39,313 bases of DNA from the IMG/VR virus record IMGVR_UViG_3300045594_000200. One strand, 5' to 3'. The first letter of the stretch is position 1; each line of letters begins with the position of its first letter. Positions 9,372-39,313 of the stretch are shown here, piece after piece. Made by a program: the position numbers and the translations under genes. Source of the stretch: a virus. The notes beneath the pieces were generated by a model that was given only the letters and a program-made list of their open reading frames with translations, was not told the origin of the DNA and did no database searches.

Positions 9372-9410
9372 ATATCCTCCATGCCGGTATTAAGGCAACC
9401 GGCTAGCCTA

Positions 9411-9437
9411 TACTGCATACTCATTCAAGATTTTGAA
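9411..9437 (-). promoter_or_regulatory. Conserved leader motif, copy A (plus-strand reading TACTGCATACTCATTCAAGATTTTGAA). On the minus strand it is followed by the hairpin 9383-9403 and then the RBS of 9195..9371.
   Basis: Near-identical to copy B at 10440-10465, with the same order of motif, hairpin, RBS and ATG. Confidence 0.45.
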
Positions 9438-9440
9438 TAA

Positions 9441-9521
9441 TTAAAGTAAATAAGATACAACAAACATGACCAGTTCACTGATAATAGCTGTCATTACGAT
9501 AATGAATGTTCTGTTATCCAT
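9441..9521 (-). CDS. Possible 26-aa hydrophobic peptide (MDNRTFIIVMTAIISELVMFVVSYLL)
   Basis: The ATG lies 1 nt after the upstream stop, and GGAGGA sits inside the upstream gene's 3' end. Confidence 0.3.
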   Translation of the reverse strand: MDNRTFIIVMTAIISELVMFVVSYLL

Positions 9522-10145: not shown

Positions 10146-10379
10146 CTATCTATCCTCCGCAAGCATCCTTTTCGCTTGCTTTTCCGTGAGATCGTAATGC
10201 CCGCCGTTTAGACCGTGAAACAATGAGAAACTAGACCAATAAATGAACTTTTTTCCGTTTGTAGCAATGACAGAATATAGCCAACTGTCCTCGACTGCCG
10301 AATACTGCCGGATATCATACAGATGGTACCCAGGTAATGCCGCTGAAATCCGTGATTCTGCTGCTTGTTTGATTGTCAT
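10146..10379 (-). CDS. Hypothetical protein (77 aa), first gene of the reverse-strand island
   Basis: AGGAGG lies 5 nt upstream of the ATG. Confidence 0.6.
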   Translation of the reverse strand: MTIKQAAESRISAALPGYHLYDIRQYSAVEDSWLYSVIATNGKKFIYWSSFSLFHGLNGGHYDLTEKQAKRMLAEDR

Positions 10380-10439
10380 GTGTTCCTCCTATTTTTGGCG
10401 CCGTTTCCGGCATAAGTTAGGCGGTTTCCCGCCTGGCAA

Positions 10440-10465
10440 TACTGTATACTCATTCAAGATTTGAA
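10440..10465 (-). promoter_or_regulatory. Conserved leader motif, copy B (TACTGTATACTCATTCAAGATTTGAA). On the minus strand it is followed by two GAAA-tetraloop hairpins (10419-10434 and 10400-10411) and then the RBS of 10146..10379.
   Basis: It differs from copy A by one substitution and one single-base gap. The minus-strand hairpins read AGGCGG-GAAA-CCGCCU and GCCG-GAAA-CGGC. Confidence 0.45.
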
Positions 10466-11210
10466 GATAAAAGAAATAAAGTTACCAGCACGTTCCTTAC
10501 AGTTATATATATGGTTATCGTTTTAGTTACGGTATATAGCGCCGTACCGCTTTTATATATGTCCTGCCGCTTGCGTGTTTGTCCTCTAGGGGCTTTCCTG
10601 TACGTGGTAGCATTTCTCACCTGTTTCAGTCTTGCGACTTCCCTATAGGCACTCTTTCCTTTTGCCCTTTATTAGGTACTTTGATGGTCTGCCGTTGCCT
10701 TGTGATTGGCTATAGATTGTCCCCAGCTATTTAGCTATTCAGTTTTCAAAGATCGGCGCCGTTGCCCCTTACTGATGCTAACGACTTGCACATATGGATT
10801 GCTTTATATGCTTATATATAGGCTTTTGTTTGCCTGTCCTTCTTTGGACACCTTCACTATGCCACTGAAAATCCGGATTGCAATAGAAAAAATTTACTCA
10901 ATGCTCAAAAATGGCTTAACAGAGCCAAAAATAGGCACAAAAATATTTTTGAAATGGCATGGCTGGCAAGGGGAAAAGTAATATATAACGTACCTTATAC
11001 GGAAAATCAAAAAAGATAATCAACGATTGTCTATTATCTCAGTTCAAATGTCTATACGGATTCTTACAAACGCCTAGATCTAGGGATATTCATCGGTTTT
11101 TATTCAAAATTATTCAATCAATCAGCGGCAGCGGCAGGGGCAGGGGCTATAGGGTAGCGCATCAGATGGGGCGGCGCAGCGTGACGGTCGTATAGTATCA
11201 TGGTTTTCTG

Positions 11211-11283
11211 TCTCTCCTGTATGTGTCTCTCCTGTATGTGTCTCTCCTGTATGTGTCTCTCCTGTACGTGTCTCCTGTATACT
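11211..11283. repeat. Tandem repeat of a 15-bp unit, TCTCTCCTGTATGTG. Three copies are perfect, one has a single substitution and one is a shortened copy.
   Basis: Read directly. Units start at 11211, 11226, 11241, 11256 and 11271. Confidence 0.95.
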
Positions 11284-11522
11284 GCATAATAAATCAGTAG
11301 TGGTATCAAAATATACGGGGGTTATATCAAAATCAAACGTTAAAATACTGAAATATTAAGATTTATAGGGGGAGTGGCACCTGTGTGCGGCATTTTGATC
11401 GTGGAAATGTTCAGCATAGGCAAAAAAATAAAAATTCCGTGGGAAAAATTCGGAATAAAAATATTATGCGAAGTCGCAATGTTCCAAATAAAATCAGTTA
11501 ATATGTAGGTGAGGAAATAAAG

Positions 11523-11747
11523 ATGAAATTCTATAAGATAGGCAGTTATTATATTCCTGAGAACTCAATAAATTATATTTTGGAGCTCATTGAAGGGACA
11601 AGAAAGACGTATGTAATAAACTTTGGCAATGATAGCCATATCAATGTGTCGGCTGGTGTAGCAAAGGATATCGGCATAGGAGGATATGATGGGGAAACTA
11701 ACAGAGTATCAAAAGAGAGACAGAACAAAGGCAAGAAAGCTCAGTGA
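11523..11747 (+). CDS. Hypothetical protein (74 aa) upstream of terS
   Basis: GGTGAGGA RBS. It overlaps the terS start by about 60 nt, so it is uncertain. Confidence 0.4.
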   Translation: MKFYKIGSYYIPENSINYILELIEGTRKTYVINFGNDSHINVSAGVAKDIGIGGYDGETNRVSKERQNKGKKAQ

Positions 11748-12096
11748 GAAGTGGTTCAATCTAACGCAGTCACCGAAAGTCACCGAAGCGCTTGTGCAGA
11801 AATATTTTGATGAAGAAGAAAGCCCGACAAAAGCAGGGCTTTTATTGTATCTGCATATAGGCAAAGGAAAGTGGCAGCAAATGAGGAGCGATCCGAAGTT
11901 CAAAGATTCCGTTGATTATGCGGACTTGAGGATTGAGGATCTGTATGAACAAAGATTGACCACACCGTCCATGACTACAGGAGCTATCTTTGGGCTGAAG
12001 AATTGCGGATGGTCGGACAGGAACGATATTAAGGCCACCTTGGATGGCCATATATCGGTAGAACAGCTTCTTAAAGGAACCAAGAAGAAAGCATGA
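11686..12096 (+). CDS. terS: Terminase small subunit (136 aa)
   Basis: AGGAGG RBS. PTKAGLLLYL ... TGAIFGLKNCGWSD is typical of gp3-type small terminases. It sits immediately upstream of terL with an ATGA overlap. Confidence 0.75.
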   Translation: MMGKLTEYQKRDRTKARKLSEKWFNLTQSPKVTEALVQKYFDEEESPTKAGLLLYLHIGKGKWQQMRSDPKFKDSVDYADLRIEDLYEQRLTTPSMTTGAIFGLKNCGWSDRNDIKATLDGHISVEQLLKGTKKKA

Positions 12097-13724
12097 AAGA
12101 CGAAGAATTGTCTATAACGATTCGGGAGTATATCGAGGAATATCTGAAGATAAAGACAAAGGATGGCCAACTGGTCAACCTGTCAATGAATTATGCGCAG
12201 AATCGTTTGTATGACATATTCAGGGATGCCTATAACGAGGATAGGCCGTGCAAGATCATAGTGCTTAAAGCTAGACAGTTGGGTATTTCGACCGTCACTG
12301 AAGCAATCATATCTTCCCTGGTAATGACTACTTATTATGTTTCGGCATTGATCGTAGCTCATATATCGGATGCATCGCAGAATATCTATAACATGTCAAA
12401 GAGATATTATGATGAACTTCCACCTGCATTGAAACCAATGATCAAGTATTCCAATGCGAGGGAATTGGTGTTTCAGAATCCGGATGATAAGGCTGCTGAA
12501 GATAATAAAGGGCTCAGGAGCTCGATCAGAGTGGCAACTGCCGGACAGTCGGGCGTTGGCCGAAGCCAAACGTTTAACTATATGCACCTGTCAGAGGTGG
12601 CATTCTGGAAAGAGGAAGATGGAAAGACAGTTCAATCGCAGCTTACCGGACTTCTTCAGACACTTCCGCAGCATGGTTTCTCATTTCTTGTTATTGAGAG
12701 CACCGCTAATGGCTGGAATTACTTTAAATCTCTTTGGGATAAGGCAGTGGCCGGAGAGAATGACTATGTACCGCTGTTCATACCGTGGTTTGAAATGGAA
12801 GATTATAGGCTTCCTTACCACGGAGAGAAACTTTCACCGGAAGAAACAGAGCTCTGTTCAAAGTATGAGATTGATGAAGAACAGATCATGTGGCGCCGGT
12901 ATGCTATTGCTAACCTTTGCGGCGGCGATATAGACCAGTTCCGCCAGGAGTACCCAAGTACACCTGAAGAAGCATTTATCATGACTGGATCGCCTGTCTT
13001 TAATACAGACAAGGTGCTTCAGAGAATGAGTGAAGTACAGCCAGCAGATTCAACCGGTATGTTTACGGATTCCGGTACATATTATGAAGATTCCAGAGGA
13101 TATATCTCAATCTGGAAGATGCCGGAGCCAAATCATGTCTATGTTATCGGCGCTGATACAGCTGGTGAAGGATCCGATTACTTCAATGCTTATGTCATTG
13201 ATAAGAATACCGGAGTACAGGTGGCAAGATACCGTGCACAATCTGATGAAGGACTGTTCGTAAAACAGATTTATTATCTTGGATATTTCTATAACATTGC
13301 AATGATCGCACCGGAAGTGAACTTTTCTTCCTATCCGACTGCAAAATTGCAGGAAATGAACTATCCAAATATGTATGTCCGTGAACAGGTCGATACATAT
13401 AAATATAAGACACAATCCTCCTTCGGTTTCCGTACTACTTCCCGAACACGTCCGCTGATTATTGATAATCTTGTGGATTTGGTTCGGGAGGAAGCCGAAA
13501 AGATCAATGATATCGAATTTTTGAGAGAATGCCTTTCATTCGTGAAGAACCCGAATACCGGAAAGCCGGAAGCTACAGAGGGTACTCATGATGATTGCGT
13601 TATGTCTATGGCAATCGCCTACTTTGTGCTTCCACAGGCTCAGCAGGTATACGTTGATACAACGGAAGCTGAAAAAGATGAATATTCTGATGATATTTCT
13701 TCTTTTCTCGGCTATGGAGAGTGA
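12093..13724 (+). CDS. terL: Terminase large subunit (543 aa)
   Basis: Deviant Walker A (VLKARQLGISTV), appropriate size and position, and a C-terminal nuclease-like region (THDDCVMS). Confidence 0.85.
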   Translation: MKDEELSITIREYIEEYLKIKTKDGQLVNLSMNYAQNRLYDIFRDAYNEDRPCKIIVLKARQLGISTVTEAIISSLVMTTYYVSALIVAHISDASQNIYNMSKRYYDELPPALKPMIKYSNARELVFQNPDDKAAEDNKGLRSSIRVATAGQSGVGRSQTFNYMHLSEVAFWKEEDGKTVQSQLTGLLQTLPQHGFSFLVIESTANGWNYFKSLWDKAVAGENDYVPLFIPWFEMEDYRLPYHGEKLSPEETELCSKYEIDEEQIMWRRYAIANLCGGDIDQFRQEYPSTPEEAFIMTGSPVFNTDKVLQRMSEVQPADSTGMFTDSGTYYEDSRGYISIWKMPEPNHVYVIGADTAGEGSDYFNAYVIDKNTGVQVARYRAQSDEGLFVKQIYYLGYFYNIAMIAPEVNFSSYPTAKLQEMNYPNMYVREQVDTYKYKTQSSFGFRTTSRTRPLIIDNLVDLVREEAEKINDIEFLRECLSFVKNPNTGKPEATEGTHDDCVMSMAIAYFVLPQAQQVYVDTTEAEKDEYSDDISSFLGYGE

Positions 13725-24705: not shown

Positions 24706-27700
24706 ATGAGTTTTTGGGATGATATTACAAATTGGTTTAGTGAGGTAGGAAAGAGAGCGCAAGAAAACGCCGACAAGGTGGATCAGGTAAGCTCAAATGT
24801 TGCTTCTTCTATCAGCCAGCCAACTGCTTATGTGCCAAAGACAGACACTTCAAGTCTGCCGCAGTCAATTACTAATGTAACGACTACTTCAACCGGCGAT
24901 CATCCCTATCAGAATGATTTGTATAGCGCAGAAGCACCTGCATATACGGCGCAGAGAGAAAAGGCAAAGAACGTTTATGACAGTACGCTAGATGCGATCC
25001 ATAACGCCGTAAATGCGGTTGGCAATACTGCCAGCAATATCGGAAATGATTTTGTACGCAATGCAAAGAAGAATGTTCAGGACACAGACAATGCTATATC
25101 TTCCTCTGTGAAGTATTCTGATACTCCTAACAATGCACCATATGTCACGACTACCACTACAGGCGATCATTCTACAGATGATACATATAAAGCGGTAGGA
25201 GCCGGTCTAAAGGCAATTTCACAGGGGAAGAATGTGTCTGAAGCAATGCAGAAGGAAACCGCTGAAACGCTTCCGGAAACATTGACAAGAGCGCAGGAAA
25301 AAATAAATAAAGCTAATCTCGAAAATGCACAGTACACTGAAACCGTAAATAACAATACGATCACAAAGGGAGCTTCTGATCTGTTAAGAAGCAATCTTGC
25401 CGGTGTGTCGAGCGCAGTAAACGGAACAGTTGCCGGTGTTGCAAACGCAGGACGTACTGTATCTCATGTTCTAGGAAATGATGAATTAGCTGATAAGTTC
25501 GGCGGTATTGCTTCAGATGCGGACGATACAGACGTTCAAACAGGGCTTAACCAGAATAACCAGTTCGCCGGTACAGTTGTAGGAGACCTTGCTTCCACGA
25601 TTGGTCAGATGTTGCCACAAACGATCTTAGGTGTTGCTACAGGCGGCACAGCGGCGGCAGGAAAGATTGGCCTTGGACTTATGGGTGCTTCTGTATACGG
25701 CAATGAATCAAATAAGGCGTTCAATCAGTTAGGAGCAGACGGTAATTTATCAAACGAAGATTATCTCAGAGCTAACCTGTATGCAGGTGCAAAAGCCGGT
25801 ACAGAGGTAGCAACAGAAAATATTGATAATGTTCTTCCTGGTATGAAAATGGGGCTTAATCAATTCTTGGAAGAAGGCCTTGAAGAAGGTGTAGGAGCAT
25901 TGGTTGATCCATTGACCGACCAGATTCTTGATGCCAAGAACCTAAAGGATGCCGCAACAAACGTAGCCAATTCCTATTCTTCAATGTCTTACTGGAAGGA
26001 CTTAGCAAAACAAGCCGGTCTTGGTACACTTTCCGCAGTAGTATCTTCTGCACCTCATTTATTAGATAAGAATTACCGTAATGCATTGATTGAAGAAACA
26101 GAAAATGCAGGTGCGGTATTATCACAGAAAATAGAATTAAAGACTATTCAGGCAACAATCTCTGCCAATAAAGCAGGGCTTGTCAGCAATGGTCAGAAAG
26201 CGGCCGCCGTAGATAATTTACGGCAGATTGCGTATGGTGAGAACGGATCACAAGGACTATTTACTTCATTGGATGATGAAGGTAATATTGCCAATCCATT
26301 AAAATCTGAAAATGGTGATATTAAAACACTTGCACAGCAGACGAACTATACGCTGATTCAGTCAGAGCTTGAAGGGAAACTTGGTTCTGATGCAGCAAAA
26401 ACTATTGCGAAGATTGCGAATAAGATGGAAACACCTATCATCTTTGACGATTCTCCGTTTACCCTTAATGATGGTACCGAAGTTGACGGATGCGTAAACA
26501 CTAATGGTGTTATATGCATCAATAAAAACGCCAGCGATCCAGTGTCATCAATTTTTGAGCATGAACTCGCCCACATGACAGAGAACTCTGAAAATCACGG
26601 AGACTATGTGGCACAGATTACGGAAATGTTCAAAAATGGAGAAATTAAAGACGAAAATAATTTGATTGGTAAGATTCAGTCAGATAATTCTCTCAGCGCA
26701 GATGCAAAGAAGAATGAGAGCGTTGCTATTCTTACACAGTCATTGCTCAATGATCAAGAATCTTTAAAGACGTTGGCCGGCAATTCTTCATCTGTAGCAA
26801 AGTATCTTATTGATTCCATGAAGAACTATGCGACAGGAAAAAGTAATACGTTGAATATCGCCATAAATACGCTCAGAAAATCATTGAATACAGCATCAGC
26901 ACCGAATGAAACAGAAGCATATACTAACCTAAGTAGACAGATGCTAGATGCAAGATTATACAGGATGGATAAAAATGTCGAACAAGTAAAAGTATCGAAA
27001 AATATTTTATCTAAATATGATGATTACCAGGATGCGCTTAAGTCAGGCGCTTCAAAGAAGGAAATAAAGTCAAAGCATGATGCTCTGTATGATGCAATCG
27101 GGAAAGCCGTATCAGGATCGGATAAGCCGATGGAAGAAACAAGCAAAGAAATTATGGACTTCTTGGCAAAACGATACGCAAAAGATAATGATGCAGAAGC
27201 AATCGTAGAACAGAAAAAGAAAAAGAGAACGGTTAAGAAGACAACGGAAGCGGTGCAGGAAACCACAGAAAATACTTCTGCCGATACCGTAAATAAACTG
27301 TCAGATTATCTTACACAGGCAGGAATCAAGAAATCTGCTGCATCAGAATATGCGCAGAATTTAGTTGAGCAGTACCCTATATTCCAGAATGATGTTCAGA
27401 GCAAGACTAAGAATCCAAAGAATACGTTCATGAAAGAAATGGCACAGGTGCGTGCTTTTGCGGAAAGAAAGAATCTTAACTTTTCTGATATTTCAAAGAA
27501 TGTATTCAGTATTATCAAGGATCAGCAGAATACAGATGTTGCACCAGCAAAGGTGGAAACGCAGCCGGAACCAGTAAAACAAACAGGCATATTTGATGAA
27601 CCTGCAAATGTGCAGGAAGTAAAAACGGAAGCAGTAAAGGCAGAAGTAAAGCCTATTACACCAGATGTAAAAGAGCCGGTGCAGGAAATCAAGACTGTAG

Positions 27701-30700
27701 AAGAAGAAAAACCTGTCATTGATGAAGCTCTTAAATCTGCTATTGATACAAAAGGAAATATCATTCAGCAGAACAACCGTACAGAGCAGGAGACTAACAG
27801 GGCTATTGCACAGAAGATCAGTGATGGTGCAAAAGCAGAAGTAAAGAAGTCTATTGAATATCAAGTGTTTAAGACAGCAGAAGAAGCAGTTACAAAAGAC
27901 GTTAAAGAAACTGTTTCTGATACTGCAAAAGAAGATATGGCTGCCGAAGTAAAGAACACAGTAAAGGCGGCCAAGAAGAAAGTGAAAAAGTCCGTTAAAT
28001 CTTCCATGGCAGATGATCTTACAAAGAATATCTCTGAAAGCATGAAGGAACATAATAATTCAAAGCTAACAGAGAACGATTCTAAGATTATTGATGATTC
28101 GGTTGATACCAACAGTAAAGTAATTGAAGATGAAGTGAACAAGCAGAGAGAAGCCGATACCAAGACAGAGAATCATAAGGTTGACCTTACGAATATCAAG
28201 TACGATCAGACAGACGGAAGATCAAAGCTGAATCATCAGTTCGCTACATTGAAGAATCTTGAAAAGTTGGATATTACACCAGAATTAAGGAAGAAATTAC
28301 AGGCAGATTTTGAATCAGGGCAGCCGAATACATATGCAAGTACACAGACAAACGAAATGAAGCTGCGTACTGCCGGTGAGAAGCTGAAAAAGAACGGTCT
28401 GAATTATTGGTATAACTATCTCACAAATAAGTGTGATGTTACGGATAAGGGAACCTATAGCCTTCATGATGTAAATGAAGGTGATCTTATTATGGCGCAG
28501 GAAGTAAATAAATCTGTAAGCAACAAGGTATCTGATTATGGAAATAGTCTTGTTACCTTAACGCAGGATGCTATCCGGAACGTTCAGAAAGACGGAAAAC
28601 TGGATAAAATTGATGCCGATAAGATTACTACAGTGAAGAAGGCAGAAGATTTCCTTGATAATCATACCGAAGTCACAAATGGAAATATTCAGGCTACTAG
28701 ATCAATGCTCAATGATAACCGTTATCTTCACCAGAATGTTACGCAGATGGTCCTTTCTATGCGGTCGTTTGCAGGATCCATGCTGCATGATGCACAGGTG
28801 TATAAGAATAATGCCTGGGAGAGCATGACCGGTGATGAAAAGGCCGATTATATGAGACAAACTCTTGATGATGTGAACGATTATATCGTCACCAAAACAA
28901 GAGAGGGAAAGAAATTTCTTCAAACGCATTCTGATTCTGATTATTTAGCTTCACTTCATACCGGCGCAGATAAAGATATTTATGAGAATCTTATATCTGC
29001 TATGGCAGATGCTACAGATGCACATGACAGTGAAACCTATGCAGAAAAGTATGAGGAATTTAAGAAGCTCGTACAGCATGATGCGCCTAGAAGTGCTACA
29101 GAAAAATTACGGTCATGGAGATATTTGAATATGCTGGTAGCACCAGTCACTCATGAGCGCAACATTCTTGGCAATGCTTTAATGTCGGCCATGAACGCTT
29201 CCAAAAATGCCAATCAGTTTTTGGTTGAATCAATGGTCAAGCATGGCGGCCTTGTTATGACACATAATATCAATCATCTAAAGGATGATACAGAATATAT
29301 GTCGTCAAAGGATCAGAAGAAATATCTTGATGCAATGGAGAAAGCGGGAATTACAGAAGAAGATATTACCGATCATCACGGATATTTTGATAACCGCAAT
29401 AATGCAATGTCTAAGGCGTTTGAAAAATATTTAAGTTCTCATACAGGCAAGGCAGATACATCAATAGCCAGAAAGAAATACTTCTCTGATCTTGGATATA
29501 CCGGCGAAGCGCTTGATTCTTTGGTAAGCAATAAATCAAGAAAGTTTGCAATCAATGATCGTAACATGGTGTATCTTAGAAACAGGACGCATACATCTTA
29601 TGAAAACGCATTGCTCAACGGCATTGCAGATGGCTCAGTATCGGGGAAATTTAAAAAGAATAATAACAGTAATGTATTGACCGGGTTTACCTATTCTAAT
29701 GAGAATGATTTTGCCAATAAAGTATTCAATGATGCAAGCAAACAGTTCATTGATGAATCTGCATTGCGTATGTCAAAGGCAAACAGAGCTCAGAAGAAAC
29801 AGGCGAAAGAATACATCCAATACCTTGAAGAAACTGGAAGTATGAAGATGGGCGAAAAGTATGGTGATGAAAACGTACAGGAGATTCTTCAGGGAAGAAC
29901 GCCTTTTGCAGGAGATAACATTGTTTCAAAGGCTATCAATTCTCTGTATAACTTCAACTCATACGGTTTTAAGTCTGCTAAGAATGTTCCGGTGGTTAAA
30001 TATCTCGGCCTTGAAAACGAAGATAAAGGCTTCTATGAGAGCAATGCCGCTACTGCACTTGCCATGGACTTGAATAACAAGGGATATTCTCTGGAAAAGA
30101 CAGAGGACGGTTCGTGGAGATTAAGCGGACTATCTAAAGAAAAGTCTGATTCTGTATTGAATGATCTTGTGGCAAACGCAAAACAGGTGGGTGAAGAATC
30201 TGTATACCGTGATTCAAATGCGTTTGTTACGCAGCTTAACAAAATGAGAAAGAACAGTAAAATTGCTAACCTTGTTTTGGAAGCATCAGTGCCATTTATT
30301 AAGACACCATCAAATATTATTCGCAGAGGTATTGAATATTCTCCTGTATCGTTTATATCAGCAAAGGCGTTAAAGAGCAAAGTCATTCATGGAGATATTT
30401 CAGGTGATGCCTATATTTCAAGAATTTCTAAGGGCATGTCTGGATCAGAGATTGCTATGGCCGGTCTTGGCTTGGCAATGGCAGGTGTTCTGAAAGGCAA
30501 AGATAGAGACGATGATTACAATGCGCAGAACTATAAGAGCTCAACTTTTGGCAACCAAGACTATGCTTTAAATATTGGCGGACATCAGATTGATCTGTCT
30601 TGGGGTGCTCCAGTTACTTCTGTATTATTGACCGGTGCAGCCGTGGCAGATGCCTTGAAGGATAAAGGAGATTTCTTCACCAATGGCGAATGGGCTAGTG

Positions 30701-32619
30701 TTGGCGCAGATGTACTTGATTCCTATTGGTCTGTAATTGAAGATACTTCTATGCTTTCCGGTCTTAAAAACACCTTAAAGACGTTTGCTGGTACTTCAAG
30801 CAAGAACGGAAAGGCATCAGATGTAGCCGTGTCATTGCTTGGAAACATTGTATCTCAGGCATTGCCTGTAGCCGGAAAACAGATTGGAAATATTATTGAT
30901 GACACTCAAAGAGTGACTTATTCCAGTGATTTGGTCGAAGAAATGAAGATCAAAGCACTTCAGACTTTGGCACAGTCTTATAAACTTCAGCCAAAACTTG
31001 ATTCCCATGGCAATGAGATCAAGAAAGATGACCTGGGAATGGGCGCTTTTGGCAGGGCAGTAAATACTCTTGCCAATCCTATTAAGGTAACAGAAGACAA
31101 TCACACTAGGCAAGACGAAGAAATACTTAAACTGTATAACACTACCAAAGATGATAGCTTGTTAGGCAGAACGATTGATACGCTAAATATCAATGGATCG
31201 GATGTTAGCTTAAAGGCCACAGATAAGACTACAACTGATGTGAATAAAGCGTATAAGAGCGTTCTGTATAATGAGCTTGGCAATTACCTTAGCTCTGATT
31301 CCTATAAGACTGCAGATGATGATACCAAAAACACTGTAGTCAGTGCGATCAAGTCATACGCAATGGCTCAGGCTAAGAAGGCATACTTCTCTGCAACCGG
31401 AATTACGCCAGATGATACTGTGCTTACCACACGTCAACAGGAAGCAGAAACACTATCAAAAGCCAACATCATGACACCGTACCAATACTTTACGTATGGC
31501 AGTATTCAGGGAATCAAAGATGTATATGGTTCTAAAGGCTTGCTGGTACGTGAAGCCATGGAAAATGGCGGCACATATGATGCATATGTTGATGCATACG
31601 CAAAAGGCAGGATCAGCCAAATGTCCCTGCTTAGTTCTACTGCCGCTAAAATGACGGAAGAAGATTTCCAGTATGAGTACAATAAGCTGGTAAGCGGTCA
31701 GACACAGGCAACCGAAGAAAAGTCAGAAGATGCTGCACGGCAGAGCTTCCTTGATAGTCTTCAGACAAACACGGACGCATTGAATACAGCTAACTCTGCC
31801 GGAATTTCAGGCGATCAATTGTATTCTGTCCTCGATACCGATTCTGATAAGGATGATAATGGCAAAGCAATCACCTATACACAGGATATCAAGGCAAGAC
31901 AAAAGGCCATTGATAATGGATCATGGGGAAATATCGTAACGGCCGTTCTGAATGGAACCGTAACAGAGGACCAGGCAATTTCTCTGCTTGGTATCAGCCA
32001 AAACGTATTTGAATTGAGTGAGGAGGCCTTTAATACCAACGTAAACGCCATGAATGACGGTACATTCTCTGGTAAATTGGCAGATAATACATCACGTTGG
32101 TATCATGTAGCAACGCAGAAATACTCAACTGCATTGGAACAGAGAAATAAACTGGTGCAGAATGGCAAGTGGGCGAAGCTCATGGAACAGGTAAATAATG
32201 GAACGCTTACCGAAAAACAGGCTATTTCATTGTCAGGAGTAAACAAGAAGGTATTTGAGCTTAGTGATGATGCATTCAACGTAAACTATTCTGCACTTCA
32301 GGAAGGAAGCTATAACGGAAGTCTTGCAGGAAGCACAGGATCCTCAAGTTCAAAATCTTCCAGTTCCTCGACCAGTTCGGCATCAAAGAAAAAGATTGCA
32401 GCAATCAACAAGGAAACGAAGTCAATCGAGGCCGCTGCCAAAAAGCAGCAGTCAGCGCAGAATGCATTATTCAGCAAATATGTTACATCTTCAAATTCAT
32501 CCAGTAAAAAGATCAAATCATCCGCAGCAGTCAGTGATAGCGATTTAGCACTTTATAATTCAATTATGAACACTCATAATAAGAATATAAATTCACTGAA
32601 ATCCAAGTATAAGATATAA
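24706..32619 (+). CDS. Giant multidomain protein (2637 aa) with an HExxH metallopeptidase-like motif. It is a candidate polyvalent virion or ejection protein.
   Basis: Uninterrupted 7.9-kb ORF with an AAGGAGG RBS. HELAH lies at 26560-26574 in an IFEHELAHM context. A Gly-rich hydrophobic segment, three C-terminal repeats of about 60 aa and a Ser-rich tail are present. Confidence 0.85.
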   Translation: MSFWDDITNWFSEVGKRAQENADKVDQVSSNVASSISQPTAYVPKTDTSSLPQSITNVTTTSTGDHPYQNDLYSAEAPAYTAQREKAKNVYDSTLDAIHNAVNAVGNTASNIGNDFVRNAKKNVQDTDNAISSSVKYSDTPNNAPYVTTTTTGDHSTDDTYKAVGAGLKAISQGKNVSEAMQKETAETLPETLTRAQEKINKANLENAQYTETVNNNTITKGASDLLRSNLAGVSSAVNGTVAGVANAGRTVSHVLGNDELADKFGGIASDADDTDVQTGLNQNNQFAGTVVGDLASTIGQMLPQTILGVATGGTAAAGKIGLGLMGASVYGNESNKAFNQLGADGNLSNEDYLRANLYAGAKAGTEVATENIDNVLPGMKMGLNQFLEEGLEEGVGALVDPLTDQILDAKNLKDAATNVANSYSSMSYWKDLAKQAGLGTLSAVVSSAPHLLDKNYRNALIEETENAGAVLSQKIELKTIQATISANKAGLVSNGQKAAAVDNLRQIAYGENGSQGLFTSLDDEGNIANPLKSENGDIKTLAQQTNYTLIQSELEGKLGSDAAKTIAKIANKMETPIIFDDSPFTLNDGTEVDGCVNTNGVICINKNASDPVSSIFEHELAHMTENSENHGDYVAQITEMFKNGEIKDENNLIGKIQSDNSLSADAKKNESVAILTQSLLNDQESLKTLAGNSSSVAKYLIDSMKNYATGKSNTLNIAINTLRKSLNTASAPNETEAYTNLSRQMLDARLYRMDKNVEQVKVSKNILSKYDDYQDALKSGASKKEIKSKHDALYDAIGKAVSGSDKPMEETSKEIMDFLAKRYAKDNDAEAIVEQKKKKRTVKKTTEAVQETTENTSADTVNKLSDYLTQAGIKKSAASEYAQNLVEQYPIFQNDVQSKTKNPKNTFMKEMAQVRAFAERKNLNFSDISKNVFSIIKDQQNTDVAPAKVETQPEPVKQTGIFDEPANVQEVKTEAVKAEVKPITPDVKEPVQEIKTVEEEKPVIDEALKSAIDTKGNIIQQNNRTEQETNRAIAQKISDGAKAEVKKSIEYQVFKTAEEAVTKDVKETVSDTAKEDMAAEVKNTVKAAKKKVKKSVKSSMADDLTKNISESMKEHNNSKLTENDSKIIDDSVDTNSKVIEDEVNKQREADTKTENHKVDLTNIKYDQTDGRSKLNHQFATLKNLEKLDITPELRKKLQADFESGQPNTYASTQTNEMKLRTAGEKLKKNGLNYWYNYLTNKCDVTDKGTYSLHDVNEGDLIMAQEVNKSVSNKVSDYGNSLVTLTQDAIRNVQKDGKLDKIDADKITTVKKAEDFLDNHTEVTNGNIQATRSMLNDNRYLHQNVTQMVLSMRSFAGSMLHDAQVYKNNAWESMTGDEKADYMRQTLDDVNDYIVTKTREGKKFLQTHSDSDYLASLHTGADKDIYENLISAMADATDAHDSETYAEKYEEFKKLVQHDAPRSATEKLRSWRYLNMLVAPVTHERNILGNALMSAMNASKNANQFLVESMVKHGGLVMTHNINHLKDDTEYMSSKDQKKYLDAMEKAGITEEDITDHHGYFDNRNNAMSKAFEKYLSSHTGKADTSIARKKYFSDLGYTGEALDSLVSNKSRKFAINDRNMVYLRNRTHTSYENALLNGIADGSVSGKFKKNNNSNVLTGFTYSNENDFANKVFNDASKQFIDESALRMSKANRAQKKQAKEYIQYLEETGSMKMGEKYGDENVQEILQGRTPFAGDNIVSKAINSLYNFNSYGFKSAKNVPVVKYLGLENEDKGFYESNAATALAMDLNNKGYSLEKTEDGSWRLSGLSKEKSDSVLNDLVANAKQVGEESVYRDSNAFVTQLNKMRKNSKIANLVLEASVPFIKTPSNIIRRGIEYSPVSFISAKALKSKVIHGDISGDAYISRISKGMSGSEIAMAGLGLAMAGVLKGKDRDDDYNAQNYKSSTFGNQDYALNIGGHQIDLSWGAPVTSVLLTGAAVADALKDKGDFFTNGEWASVGADVLDSYWSVIEDTSMLSGLKNTLKTFAGTSSKNGKASDVAVSLLGNIVSQALPVAGKQIGNIIDDTQRVTYSSDLVEEMKIKALQTLAQSYKLQPKLDSHGNEIKKDDLGMGAFGRAVNTLANPIKVTEDNHTRQDEEILKLYNTTKDDSLLGRTIDTLNINGSDVSLKATDKTTTDVNKAYKSVLYNELGNYLSSDSYKTADDDTKNTVVSAIKSYAMAQAKKAYFSATGITPDDTVLTTRQQEAETLSKANIMTPYQYFTYGSIQGIKDVYGSKGLLVREAMENGGTYDAYVDAYAKGRISQMSLLSSTAAKMTEEDFQYEYNKLVSGQTQATEEKSEDAARQSFLDSLQTNTDALNTANSAGISGDQLYSVLDTDSDKDDNGKAITYTQDIKARQKAIDNGSWGNIVTAVLNGTVTEDQAISLLGISQNVFELSEEAFNTNVNAMNDGTFSGKLADNTSRWYHVATQKYSTALEQRNKLVQNGKWAKLMEQVNNGTLTEKQAISLSGVNKKVFELSDDAFNVNYSALQEGSYNGSLAGSTGSSSSKSSSSSTSSASKKKIAAINKETKSIEAAAKKQQSAQNALFSKYVTSSNSSSKKIKSSAAVSDSDLALYNSIMNTHNKNINSLKSKYKI

Positions 32620-32624
32620 GAAGA

Positions 32625-32653
32625 CCGTACCTGTAAAAGGGTACGGCTTTTTT
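32625..32653 (+). terminator. Rho-independent terminator of the late operon
   Basis: CCGTACC-tgtaaaag-GGTACGG followed by C and TTTTTT. Confidence 0.8.
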
Positions 32654-32675
32654 ATTCAAAATTATTCTAGCGGCT

Positions 32676-32750
32676 AATGCTATATTGTGCTATGGAGTGC
32701 TGTTAAATGCCTGAATATATTGAAATATGCTATGTGATGCTATAAAATGC
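32676..32750. promoter_or_regulatory. attP-like array: (A/G)TGC(TAT) motifs phased every 10 bp next to the integrase gene
   Basis: TGC occurs at 32678, 32688, 32698, 32708, 32728, 32738 and 32748. Four of these copies read TGCTAT. Confidence 0.4.
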
Positions 32751-32825
32751 AGTAAGTCATTTTCATAATGGATTCTCCTTTTCTCTTTGTTATAGCCATA
32801 AAATACACTTTTTATTCAATTTTAT

Positions 32826-33953
32826 TCAATTCTTTAGTAAATTTACTGCATTCTTTTTCTTCTCGTTATCGCTCCTTGCGTATTTTATTGTCATTGACGG
32901 TTCTGCATGTCCCATAAGCTCCATGGTAGTACGAACGTCTACATTGTTTGTAATCATATTGGTAGAGAACCTATGGCGCAATGCGTAAAGGTGAAACGAT
33001 ATGCCTAATCTTGAAGATATGCGGTTTATCAGCCATGATACCGAATTGCTGCTTAGATATTTATTATTGATATCTGCAAATAGATTGTCTGTTTTAGCAT
33101 ATCCTAGAACGATCTGAAACACCTTTATTCCTTCATTATTAAGCGGTATGTCTCTTACAGATGATTCTGTTTTAGTGGCCACAACTGCACAATCAGAATA
33201 TTCGTTTGATCCGATACTGTGGCATATATGGATATAGCCTTCTTCTATATGCACGTCTTCTCTCGTCAGTGCATAGCATTCTGCCGGTCTTATTCCGGTC
33301 TCCCTGATTGTCATGATTGCATATGCTAAAATGTGATAATAGTATATTTGTTCTTCACCAATACCTTGTGTCAAAAAATAATTTATCATTTTATCAATAT
33401 CTACATCTTTTACCTTTTGACTGCGAGGTTCTGTAACGTGTTTGCTCTTAGCTGGTACAATTACCCGATCCATTGGATTTATGGTAATGAGGTTTAGCAT
33501 TATAGCGGTCTTACATATTTTCTTCCAGACAATAGCAATACGTTTTATCATATTTAGCGAAACATCATATACCAAGCTGTTAAGAAAGCTCTGAATATCC
33601 AACGGGCGTATATCATCTATGTTCTTGTTTCCATATGTGGCTTTGATACGGCAAAAATCAGAACGCAATGTTTTTCTGTTCCCTTGTGATTCATGGTAAA
33701 GATCAAGTCCTTCGTTGAATACCTGTTCTACCGTTCTGTGTACGCCGCTTGGAAGACCGTTAAGAAGCAATTCTGCTCTCTTTATATCCCTGTGATTGCA
33801 CGCTTCAATCATGCACTGATTGAATGATGTATATTCGGCAGGATTGAATGTCTTGGAGTACACCTTCCTTATGCCATCTGAATCATAATAGAACTTGACG
33901 GTAATATATTTGTTACCATTATGTTGCTGAATTGTAATATATTTTTCTTTCAT
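32826..33953 (-). CDS. int: Tyrosine-recombinase integrase (375 aa)
   Basis: ETGIRPAE (box I Arg), HLYALRHRFST (HxxR) and LMGHAEPSMTIKYAR (His and catalytic Tyr). Confidence 0.9.
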   Translation of the reverse strand: MKEKYITIQQHNGNKYITVKFYYDSDGIRKVYSKTFNPAEYTSFNQCMIEACNHRDIKRAELLLNGLPSGVHRTVEQVFNEGLDLYHESQGNRKTLRSDFCRIKATYGNKNIDDIRPLDIQSFLNSLVYDVSLNMIKRIAIVWKKICKTAIMLNLITINPMDRVIVPAKSKHVTEPRSQKVKDVDIDKMINYFLTQGIGEEQIYYYHILAYAIMTIRETGIRPAECYALTREDVHIEEGYIHICHSIGSNEYSDCAVVATKTESSVRDIPLNNEGIKVFQIVLGYAKTDNLFADINNKYLSSNSVSWLINRISSRLGISFHLYALRHRFSTNMITNNVDVRTTMELMGHAEPSMTIKYARSDNEKKKNAVNLLKN

Positions 33954-38784: not shown

Positions 38785-39313
38785 TGATAGGTTCGAGGGG
38801 TTCATTGTTTTACAGCACAAAATAATGGATTGGCAGTATTTCGGATGCATGAACGCATTGGGAATATGGATGCACATTCTGATGAACGCAAATTGGCGAG
38901 ACGGATGGTTCATGGGAGACAAGATTGAGAGAGGATCATTTGCTACTTCAAACAAGAAATTAGCGAAGGAATGTGACCTCAGTGAGTCGACAATCAGAAG
39001 GTGGCTAAAACGGTTTGAAGAAGCAGGACAAATCAAGGCAATCGGAACAAACAGATATACCAAGATAATCGTTATAAATTACGGTAAATATCAAGATTAT
39101 ACGTCAGACGTGGACAACCAAGTGAACAACCAAGTGAACAACCAAGTGAACAATCAAGTGAACAACAATAGAACAAATAAACAAAGAAACAAAGAAACAA
39201 TAAAAGATAAATATATTGTGCAAAAGTTTTCTAAACCGTCAGTGCAGGAACTAGAAGACTATGCAAAATCAATCGAATTTCAGAATTTCAGTGCAAGCAG
39301 TTTTCTTGACTAT
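38777..39313 (+). CDS. Replisome organizer / DnaD-like protein, N-terminal part. It is open at the window end and continues at base 1.
   Basis: The ATG overlaps the upstream stop. N-terminal wHTH (SFATSNKKLAKECDLSESTIRRWLKRFEEAGQI). There is no stop before the window end, and the ORF is absent from the ORF track for that reason. Confidence 0.75.
   Translation, partial: MNDDRFEGFIVLQHKIMDWQYFGCMNALGIWMHILMNANWRDGWFMGDKIERGSFATSNKKLAKECDLSESTIRRWLKRFEEAGQIKAIGTNRYTKIIVINYGKYQDYTSDVDNQVNNQVNNQVNNQVNNNRTNKQRNKETIKDKYIVQKFSKPSVQELEDYAKSIEFQNFSASSFLDY
39110..39169. repeat. Five tandem 12-bp units (GTGRACAAYMAW) inside the replisome-organizer gene, encoding (V-[DN]-N-Q)n
   Basis: GTGGACAACCAA, GTGAACAACCAA x2, GTGAACAATCAA and GTGAACAACAAT were read directly. 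Confidence 0.9.
39224..39313. repeat. Second copy of the 90-bp terminal repeat
   Basis: Identical to bases 1-90. Confidence 0.95.

Follow-up and report, generated by a model that had tools for sequence, protein, structure and literature searches.

A gene-free stretch of an uncultivated phage genome as a candidate composite control region between an anti-restriction operon and a packaging operon

We analysed positions 10380-11522 of a 39,313-nucleotide (nt) virus sequence (IMG/VR record IMGVR_UViG_3300045594_000200), the whole of which is called the window below. The stretch lies between a leftward ArdC-type anti-restriction operon and the rightward packaging operon of a phage. On balance, we favour reading it as a composite non-coding control region for divergent transcription, in which the left part would be a boxA-bearing, allele-variable leader of the anti-restriction operon, and the right part a control and/or pac zone of the packaging operon. 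The stretch is non-coding; short blocks and motifs are conserved among relatives, one segment exists as unrelated alleles, and small hairpins vary by compensatory changes that keep their stems paired. From these features we infer, as candidate roles, transcription, Nus binding, antitermination and pac function.

Diverged relatives were collected through the large terminase (TerL) and ArdC. The lineage of the window itself is present on at least 15 contigs, and in the six of them examined the region is 99.5-100% identical to the window. TerL identity to the window is 84% for L001/L153, 83-84% for L227 and L228 (right half only) and 65-70% for L155, L156, L157, L229 and L230; L236 and its near-twin L270 hold the left half of an L001-type phage. 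L001, L156 and L230 likewise retain, ahead of the packaging operon, a stretch of 0.9-1.3 kb free of open reading frames (ORFs).

The initial annotation, made from the letters alone, had singled out the stretch as the largest in the genome without a credible ORF, and this was confirmed over the circular genome: the largest gap between ORFs of at least 100 amino acids (aa) spans 10163-11685, and the runner-up measures 773 nt. ORFs over a conserved block at about 10912 (motif TGGCTYAAC) use one frame in the window, another in L001 and a third in L236, and a 44-aa ORF at 11374-11508 and its L001 counterpart read the conserved ATTATGCGAAGT in different frames. Because these frames differ between relatives, the small ORFs are not real genes, and conserved small proteins inside the stretch were ruled out. 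An alternative genetic code was also rejected, since five of the six frames carry all three stops and the sixth has five stops of two kinds; no tRNA genes are encoded. The composition is uneven, as had been noted by eye, with the plus strand T-rich at 10500-10850, A-rich at 10870-11100 and G-rich at 11100-11200.

Predicted leader of the anti-restriction operon

The features of the left part (10380-10883), in the direction of predicted transcription, are as follows.

10856-10883, minus strand: predicted leftward sigma-A-type promoter (-35 TTGCAA at 10878-10883, 16-nt spacer, -10 CATAGT at 10861-10856)
10758-10766, minus strand: GGCAACGGC box, abutting boxA; GCCGTTGCC on the plus strand
10737-10754, minus strand: boxA-like signal GATCTTTGAAAACTGAAT, about 100 nt into the predicted leader
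10691-10699 and 10568-10573, minus strand: further boxes (GGCAACGGC sense and CAAGCG, respectively)
10486-10736, minus strand: main part of the variable leader core, without an ORF, holding a third hairpin (10628-10639) and a long-range pairing
10439-10485, minus strand: block B, containing the perfect 13-bp palindrome TTCAAGATTTGAA at 10453-10465
10392-10434, minus strand: leader 3' end with two hairpins (fold z = -2.1)
10419-10434, minus strand: hairpin 1, AGGCGG-GAAA-CCGCCU
10399-10412, minus strand: hairpin 2, UGCCG-GAAA-CGGCG, inside the conserved AUGCCS-loop-SGGCGCCA
10386-10391, minus strand: Shine-Dalgarno sequence AGGAGG of the 77-aa LPD24 gene

The geometry of the predicted promoter is kept among relatives (TTGCAA-16-TATTAT in L001, TTGCAA-16-TATTCT in L236 and TTGCAA-16-CATAGT in the window), L001/L236 homology restarts exactly at the -10 element, and L157 has a canonical TTGACG-17-TATATT at the equivalent place. 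Based on this conserved leftward promoter-like site and the canonical promoter of L157, transcription is predicted to start at about 10849, giving a leader of approximately 470 nt that would reach down to 10380.

The boxA-like signal GATCTTTGAAAACTGAAT is identical at 17 of 18 positions to GTTCTTTGAAAACTGAAT, a conserved ribosomal RNA (rRNA) spacer motif, and is the sole site in the window within three mismatches of that motif. The L157 leader contains the identical 17-mer (17/18 to GTTCTTTGAAAACTGAAT) about 60 nt downstream of its canonical promoter, and the L001 version, GTTCTTTGAAAAGTGAAC, matches at 16/18 (two mismatches) and stands 46 nt away from the start predicted there. The predicted promoters of the window and L001, conserved and weaker, would be 46-96 nt upstream of the site. 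Of the 10 specified positions of GYTCTTTAANA, the gammaproteobacterial boxA consensus (PMC5725501), the window fits 8 and L001 fits 9. GTTCTTTGAAAACTGAAT is conserved enough in the mollicute 16S-23S rRNA spacer to have served for a universal PCR primer (PMC3019172). The nut-like elements of rRNA operons (rrn) reside in the 16S leader and the 16S-23S spacer, are mainly boxA-dependent, and allow RNA polymerase to resist termination by Rho (PMC8632103). A sequence of the rrn boxA type is present in the window, L001 and L157, and the L236 allele has none. We take GATCTTTGAAAACTGAAT to be a boxA of the rRNA-operon type.

The boxes that flank this signal recur with it. CAA[GC][GC]G boxes adjoin boxA in the window, L001 and L157, and in the three leader alleles together there are 11 of them against about 0.9 expected from the window-wide density, an approximately tenfold enrichment; CAAGCG itself occurs six times against 0.38 expected. 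The initial annotation had already listed the GCCGTTGCC boxes at 10691 and 10758, and both lie where it placed them.

Downstream of boxA, the leader core exists as alleles without detectable relationship. Over the first 181 nt, L001 and L236 agree at 87-100% of positions, and over 610-901 at 90%, whereas no similarity could be detected between L001 182-609 and the 460 nt that take its place in L236; window 10486-10850 is unrelated to both. All three alleles are free of ORFs, have a similar length (380-460 nt; core about 400 nt) and share a plus strand with 36-40% T and 17-21% A, so that the minus (sense) strand is purine-rich and U-poor (A 36-40%, U 17-21%); in the window this transcript-like purine-rich minus strand extends over 10435-10860. 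L236 and L270, which come from different sources, are 98.9% identical across the variable part, which indicates stable alleles rather than a hypermutating tract. On the sense strand of the core, the promoter/terminator scan gave no terminator-like hairpin, and the tract list holds no U run of four or more.

Conservation resumes at the leader 3' end. About 45 nt around TTCAAGATTTGAA in block B are repeated within the leftward operon at 9410-9455 (23/24 repeat match), and exact 17-mers of block B occur twice in the window against 0.37 expected. This second copy stands directly after the gene of a 26-aa hydrophobic peptide, MDNRTFIIVMTAIISELVMFVVSYLL (9441-9521, minus strand), which has a good ribosome-binding site and is conserved in L236 and L271, and ahead of the next gene of the operon. 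Two copies of block B are present in L236/L270 and one in L271; every copy precedes a leftward gene by a few tens to about 140 nt, and after each come a GC hairpin and a Shine-Dalgarno sequence. A sigma-A promoter in block B was rejected, as no consistent -35/-10 pair is found across the six copies; with low confidence, we suggest that block B is an operator or a processing signal.

The initial annotation had drawn attention to three minus-strand hairpins with GNRA loops (10419-10434, 10400-10411 and 10628-10639) as an argument for a minus-strand RNA. All three were located correctly, and hairpins of this type with at least four Watson-Crick pairs number 3 on the minus strand of the stretch against 0.17 expected from shuffles (P about 5e-4, a post hoc value), with 18 GNRA-loop hairpins over the whole window on both strands. 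Its two best hairpins belong to the 5' untranslated region (UTR) just before the ribosome-binding site. AUGCCS-loop-SGGCGCCA is kept in the window, L001/L236 and L157, with a loop-closing pair that is either G-C or C-G; the stems of relatives differ and retain pairing, GCCC/GGGC and GGGCUA/UAGCCC in L001/L236 and GCCCA/UGGGC in L157, and the hairpin 1 stem is entirely different in L001. Hairpins 1 and 2 may act as a 5' stabiliser or as a translational operator. The third hairpin and the long-range pairing proposed to enclose it (10641-10649 with 10583-10591) have no counterpart in relatives and lie in a segment without conservation; RNAfold recovers that pairing, which contains an A.G mismatch that had gone unmentioned and, with z = -1.07, does no better than shuffled sequence. 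Alignment of relatives, which the initial annotation had recommended, thus revealed conserved flanks and compensatory changes in two hairpins, and no conservation in the variable core. Together, the two hairpins that recur with other stems, the purine-rich strand, the promoter-like site and the boxA-like signal agree with the idea of a minus-strand RNA, which probably exists, and which most likely resembles an untranslated mRNA leader rather than a large structured non-coding RNA (ncRNA).

These observations suggest the following mechanism. Starting near 10856-10883, host RNA polymerase would transcribe leftward, first the leader of approximately 470 nt and then the ArdC-type anti-restriction operon. 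Some 100 nt after the start, boxA would recruit host NusB/NusE, yielding a termination-resistant polymerase that could continue through both the long untranslated segment and the 4 kb of the operon; a boxA would suit this leader because a long untranslated RNA is the kind that needs protection from termination. The middle of the leader would be free to vary and exists as unrelated alleles, and the leader 3' end would provide a palindromic operator or processing site, then one or two GC hairpins as 5' stabilisers.

A different arrangement was seen in L230 (68% TerL identity; positions 2440-2960), where the leftward gene has a short leader and a strong promoter, TTGACT-17-TATATT. The long T-poor stretch without ORFs is found instead behind a rightward TTGACA-18-GATATT, so that the long leader appears to have moved to the other side.

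Region upstream of the packaging operon and genomic setting

The features of the right part are given from left to right.

10868-11040: blocks C and D, upstream of the predicted leftward promoter, with A-tracts at 10868, 10887, 10907 and 10927
11027-11036: TTGTCTATTA, within blocks C/D
11073-11084: perfect 12-bp palindrome CCTAGATCTAGG, not conserved in relatives
11097-11115, plus strand: 19-nt AT-rich motif TTTTTATTCAAAATTATTC, with an inverted copy at 11443-11461 (three mismatches)
11120-11171, plus strand: G-rich patch with a G-quadruplex-type motif at 11137-11171, one of only two in the window
11186-11211, plus strand: block E, GGTCGTATAGTATCATGGTTTTCTGT, 26 nt, holding the only blastn-detectable stretch common to the window and L001
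11209-11283, plus strand: 15-bp tandem array TGTCTCTCCTGTATG (Tandem Repeats Finder), four full units plus partial ones
11316-11330, plus strand: block F, ACGGGGGTTATATCA, conserved in relatives; also given as the 14-mer ACGGGGGTTATATC
11452-11501, plus strand: block G, GGAATAAAAATATTATGCGAAGT, with a candidate -10 TATTAT at 11462-11467, or a mini-ORF beginning MRS at 11466-11501

The palindrome CCTAGATCTAGG, the G-rich patch and the 15-bp array had all been described in the initial annotation, and every motif that it quoted was found in its place.

The architecture of the right part recurs in relatives at 65-84% TerL identity. Blocks C/D are 70-90% conserved between the window, L001 and L236; their A-tracts are about 20 bp apart, with a periodicity of 10.5-11 bp, and the stem of a small hairpin at 10912-10927, after which the minus strand has a U-run, varies compensatorily (UGGCU/AGCCA, GUGG/CCAC and GUGG/CCAU). 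In the window, L001, L227, L155, L156 and L157, the distance from a G-quadruplex-type motif to the downstream terL is 810-975 nt (motif positions 896, 243, 230, 1524 and 3181, respectively, in the five relatives), with the G strand used in four of the six and the C strand in two. Block E is also present in L227, and a related block in L155, L156, L229 and L230. The tandem array has five units in L221, L222 and L226, otherwise near-identical sequences from other samples, versus four in the window, and relatives carry 2-3 repeats with a TTCCC/TCTCC core. A scan with the block F 14-mer ACGGGGGTTATATC returned chance matches only, besides L001's own contig. Between blocks F and G, terminator-like hairpins with U-runs were found at L001 1140-1172 and L227 474-507 (z = -4.0 for L227), and no canonical one at window 11380-11420. 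The ATTATGCGAAGT portion of block G is common to six loci (window, L001, L227, L228, L155 and L154).

The pac site of phage SPP1 spans promoters and the start of the terS gene and has sets of direct repeats (PMC4737164, PMC6316719). In the window, direct repeats (the array at 11209-11283) and conserved blocks precede the first gene of the terS operon by 240-400 nt, matching the SPP1-type site in position and in the presence of repeats. The right part (10884-11522), to which a plausible pac role is confined, most likely serves late control and/or pac, and it would hold a late promoter and/or the site at which the small terminase recognises pac.

The AT-rich motif TTTTTATTCAAAATTATTC occurs both in this region and at the integrase locus. 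Direct copies at 32649-32667 and 32809-32827 sit beside the integrase gene and flank the presumed attP, so that the window holds four matches against 0.06 expected, and the inverted pair at 11097/11443 encloses the G-rich patch and the 15-bp array. An invertible segment between these arms was considered and rejected, as no contig shows the other orientation and contig breaks do not fall at the arms. The assembly breaks are scattered (10146, 11130, 11238 and 11380), in or next to repeats or the G-rich patch, and are therefore uninformative on physical ends; for the same reason, contig breaks were rejected as marking the ends of the genome. At the integrase locus itself, ATGCTAT-type boxes are repeated at 32668-32808, between the late-operon terminator and the integrase 3' end, and this segment is likely the attP region with arm-type sites.

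The genes that frame the stretch, and the integrase gene, are listed below.

10146-10379, minus strand: first leftward gene, 77 aa, LPD24 domain (Pfam)
11523-11747, plus strand: first ORF of the rightward packaging/late operon, 74 aa, ahead of terS
11686-12096, plus strand: gp3-type small terminase (terS, 136 aa)
12093-13724, plus strand: large terminase (terL), of a headful-type family
32826-33953: tyrosine integrase gene

The first 90 bases of the window equal the last 90 (1-90 and 39224-39313), which indicates a circularly closed contig with a true length of 39,223 bp; its G+C content is 40%. The gene content suggests a temperate, podovirus-like phage with a Gram-positive, probably clostridial host, the endolysin, with an amidase domain and CW_7 repeats, being the indication of a Gram-positive host. 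A recombination/replication module (Erf, a Gam-like protein, an exonuclease, RusA and SSB) is present, and structural genes include a P22-type portal, a capsid protein and a collagen-repeat tail fibre. The leftward operon runs from 10379 to about 6335 (approximately 4 kb) and encodes the LPD24-domain protein, small proteins and a 528-aa ArdC-N/MPTase-PolyVal protein. The closest TerL match in the genome collection is a Eubacteriales metagenome-assembled genome (43% identity); among cultured phages, tblastn gave no TerL above 36% identity, and blastn against GenBank phages found no relative of the window. In a set of 5.8 billion proteins, the sole match of the 77-aa LPD24 protein is itself, and the small flanking proteins recovered no relatives in IMG/VR when used as anchors. 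The late operon closes with a 2637-aa ORF (24706-32619, plus strand), which may be an injected or virion protein; it has no sequence match in Pfam, PHROG or PDB, and these searches thus gave no support to the idea of a virion RNA polymerase, which might account for the odd promoters.

Weighing the alternatives

Several points weigh against the composite reading. The window promoter is weak relative to the consensus (8/12) and absent from the consensus promoter scan listing; a second candidate -10, TATATA (10815-10820), is homologous to the L001/L236 -10 and lacks a -35, and all start sites and directions are predictions. The window boxA departs from the consensus at position 2 (A for Y), nothing boxA-like is present in the L236/L270 allele (7 mismatches in its best match), and no boxB or boxC partner was identified beside the boxA-like signal. 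We take GTTCTTTGAAAACTGAAT to be the boxA of Gram-positive rRNA operons, as reportedly described by Berg, Squires and Squires (1989); the papers cited above show only that it is a conserved 16S-23S spacer sequence. Block B does not fit a sigma-A promoter, and no computed feature separates a late promoter from pac in the right part. Furthermore, the pac site of P22 lies inside the terS gene.

The initial annotation had raised the possibility of a large ncRNA such as ROOL or GOLLD, that is, a structured minus-strand RNA of a known or new class that would fill much of the region and act through its fold. The enrichment of GNRA-loop hairpins and the compensatory changes in two of them would suit such an RNA, as would the L236 allele, which folds far better than shuffles (whole-leader z = -4.9, from only 20 shuffles). 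The corresponding whole-leader values, however, hardly depart from shuffled sequences in the window (-1.2) and in L001 (-0.3), and sliding 150-nt z-scores on both strands range from -2.6 to +2.3, the best window (10380-10529, minus strand) being the one that holds the two leader-end hairpins. Rfam searches at gathering thresholds, including ROOL, GOLLD, HEARO and raiA, gave no match in the window or in eight related loci, and a permissive search of the window (E up to 10) returned only four chance-level matches to eukaryotic families. The cores are dissimilar even where their flanks are 90-100% identical, and no shared hairpin pattern was found among them. We consider a large structured RNA very unlikely.

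The variability of the core between conserved flanks could instead be a sign of specificity, with the core acting as a regulatory RNA, either in immunity or antisense control as in P4 CI, P1/P7 c4 and N15 CB or as an anti-defence decoy, whose alleles would define hetero-specific phage types; in the former case it would be cut out of the leader of the very operon under its control. Such an RNA would account for alleles that are unrelated and yet stable, for their preserved length and strand composition, for their position in the leader of an early/anti-defence operon, and for the conserved palindrome that is repeated in the operon. Rfam, which includes a C4 antisense RNA family, gave no match, however; beyond block B the core has no significant complementarity internally or to the rest of the genome, its fold z-scores are weak (window and L001), and only three alleles are known. 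For an immunity RNA of the P4 CI/P1 c4 type, the best internal inverted repeat is AT-rich, 15 nt long and 80% complementary, and this candidate was rejected together with a single-strand promoter of the Frpo/ssi type known from plasmid leading regions (an imperfect hairpin of about 300 nt in single-stranded DNA), for which there is neither a long inverted repeat nor a strong fold signal. We regard a specificity-determining RNA as improbable. A related idea joins it to boxA: the leader would be a modular RNA device, in which a host-mimicking boxA loads Nus factors and an exchangeable functional segment of about 400 nt, swapped through recombination at the conserved flanks, sets phage-type specificity. 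We give this extension a small chance.

At the other extreme, most of the stretch could be functionless spacer or decayed genes, with only a short promoter on each side of importance. The core sequence is indeed not conserved, nor are the palindrome at 11073 and the third hairpin. Against this stand the retention of a long ORF-free stretch in L001, L156 and L230, the similar length and strong strand bias of three unrelated alleles, the many short blocks conserved down to 65% TerL identity and up to 84%, and the near-complete identity of the region in the examined contigs of its own lineage. We therefore think mere spacer unlikely.

A replication origin had also been proposed, based on the boxes and AT-rich tracts, to which the 15-bp array can be added. 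Repeats and AT-rich tracts are present, and the cumulative GC skew has a local minimum near 10850-10950; since gene orientation changes at the same place, this minimum carries no information. No initiator gene adjoins the stretch, and the 15-bp units, being CT-rich and joined head to tail, do not resemble iterons, which are spaced. A more typical iteron array is found at 39110-39204, where a 12-bp unit, GTGAACAACCAA, is repeated 4.8 times and followed by an A-rich 8-bp array. These arrays sit within the linker of a replication-organiser-like 256-aa protein (38777 across the junction to 324) with an N-terminal winged-helix domain and a C-terminus matching a phage family, encoded in the Erf/exonuclease/RusA/SSB module, and 39110-39204 is a candidate lambda-O-like origin inside its initiator gene. 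Because of this better candidate, we consider an origin within 10380-11522 most improbable.

Comparison with known systems

If the boxA reading holds, a phage of a Gram-positive gut or rumen bacterium copies the host's rRNA antitermination signal for an anti-restriction operon without a protein of the lambda N type; to our knowledge, use of the Nus system of this sort is little documented outside proteobacterial phages. The stable, unrelated alleles between near-identical flanks would offer a comparative handle on the role of long untranslated phage leaders, and the right half would be a concrete pac/late-control candidate for an uncultivated phage clade, with a G-quadruplex-type motif fixed in position and not in strand.

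What the stretch has in common with ROOL, GOLLD, HEARO and raiA is no more than its setting, a long segment free of ORFs in a phage with a Gram-positive host; it differs from them in having neither a covariance-model match nor a conserved core sequence or fold. As at the nut sites of lambda, the leader of a phage early operon bears a boxA-like sequence, and the same leader has GC stems with GAAA or AAAAA loops that resemble boxB, among them the L001 hairpin GCCC-AAAAA-GGGC; boxB of lambda is GCCCU-GAAAA-AGGGC. Unlike in lambda, these hairpins (10399-10434) are about 300 nt from boxA (10737-10754) instead of within about 10 nt, where no boxB was found, the boxA is of the Gram-positive rrn type, and domain and family searches recognised no N-like gene.

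The left part is comparable to the boxA sites of rrn, and to their reuse in the leaders of Escherichia coli suhB and of CRISPR arrays: a linear boxA-type sequence, nearly identical to a conserved rRNA spacer motif, stands a few tens of nucleotides after a predicted promoter, early in what would be a long untranslated transcript. It differs from them in belonging to the mRNA leader of a phage of a Gram-positive host, in having CAAGCG/CAACGG boxes at its flanks and no recognised boxB or boxC, and in one allele that is without boxA; the site is putative, and its function is read from sequence.

The right part, as a candidate pac region, is comparable to pac of SPP1 and SF6. It is much longer than these sites, its head-to-tail 15-bp array adjoins a G-quadruplex-type patch, and the TerL of the phage is less than 36% identical to that of any cultured phage. 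As in SPP1 and SF6, it is non-coding, lies immediately upstream of terS, overlaps the predicted promoters of the operon, contains direct repeats and accompanies a headful-type terminase.

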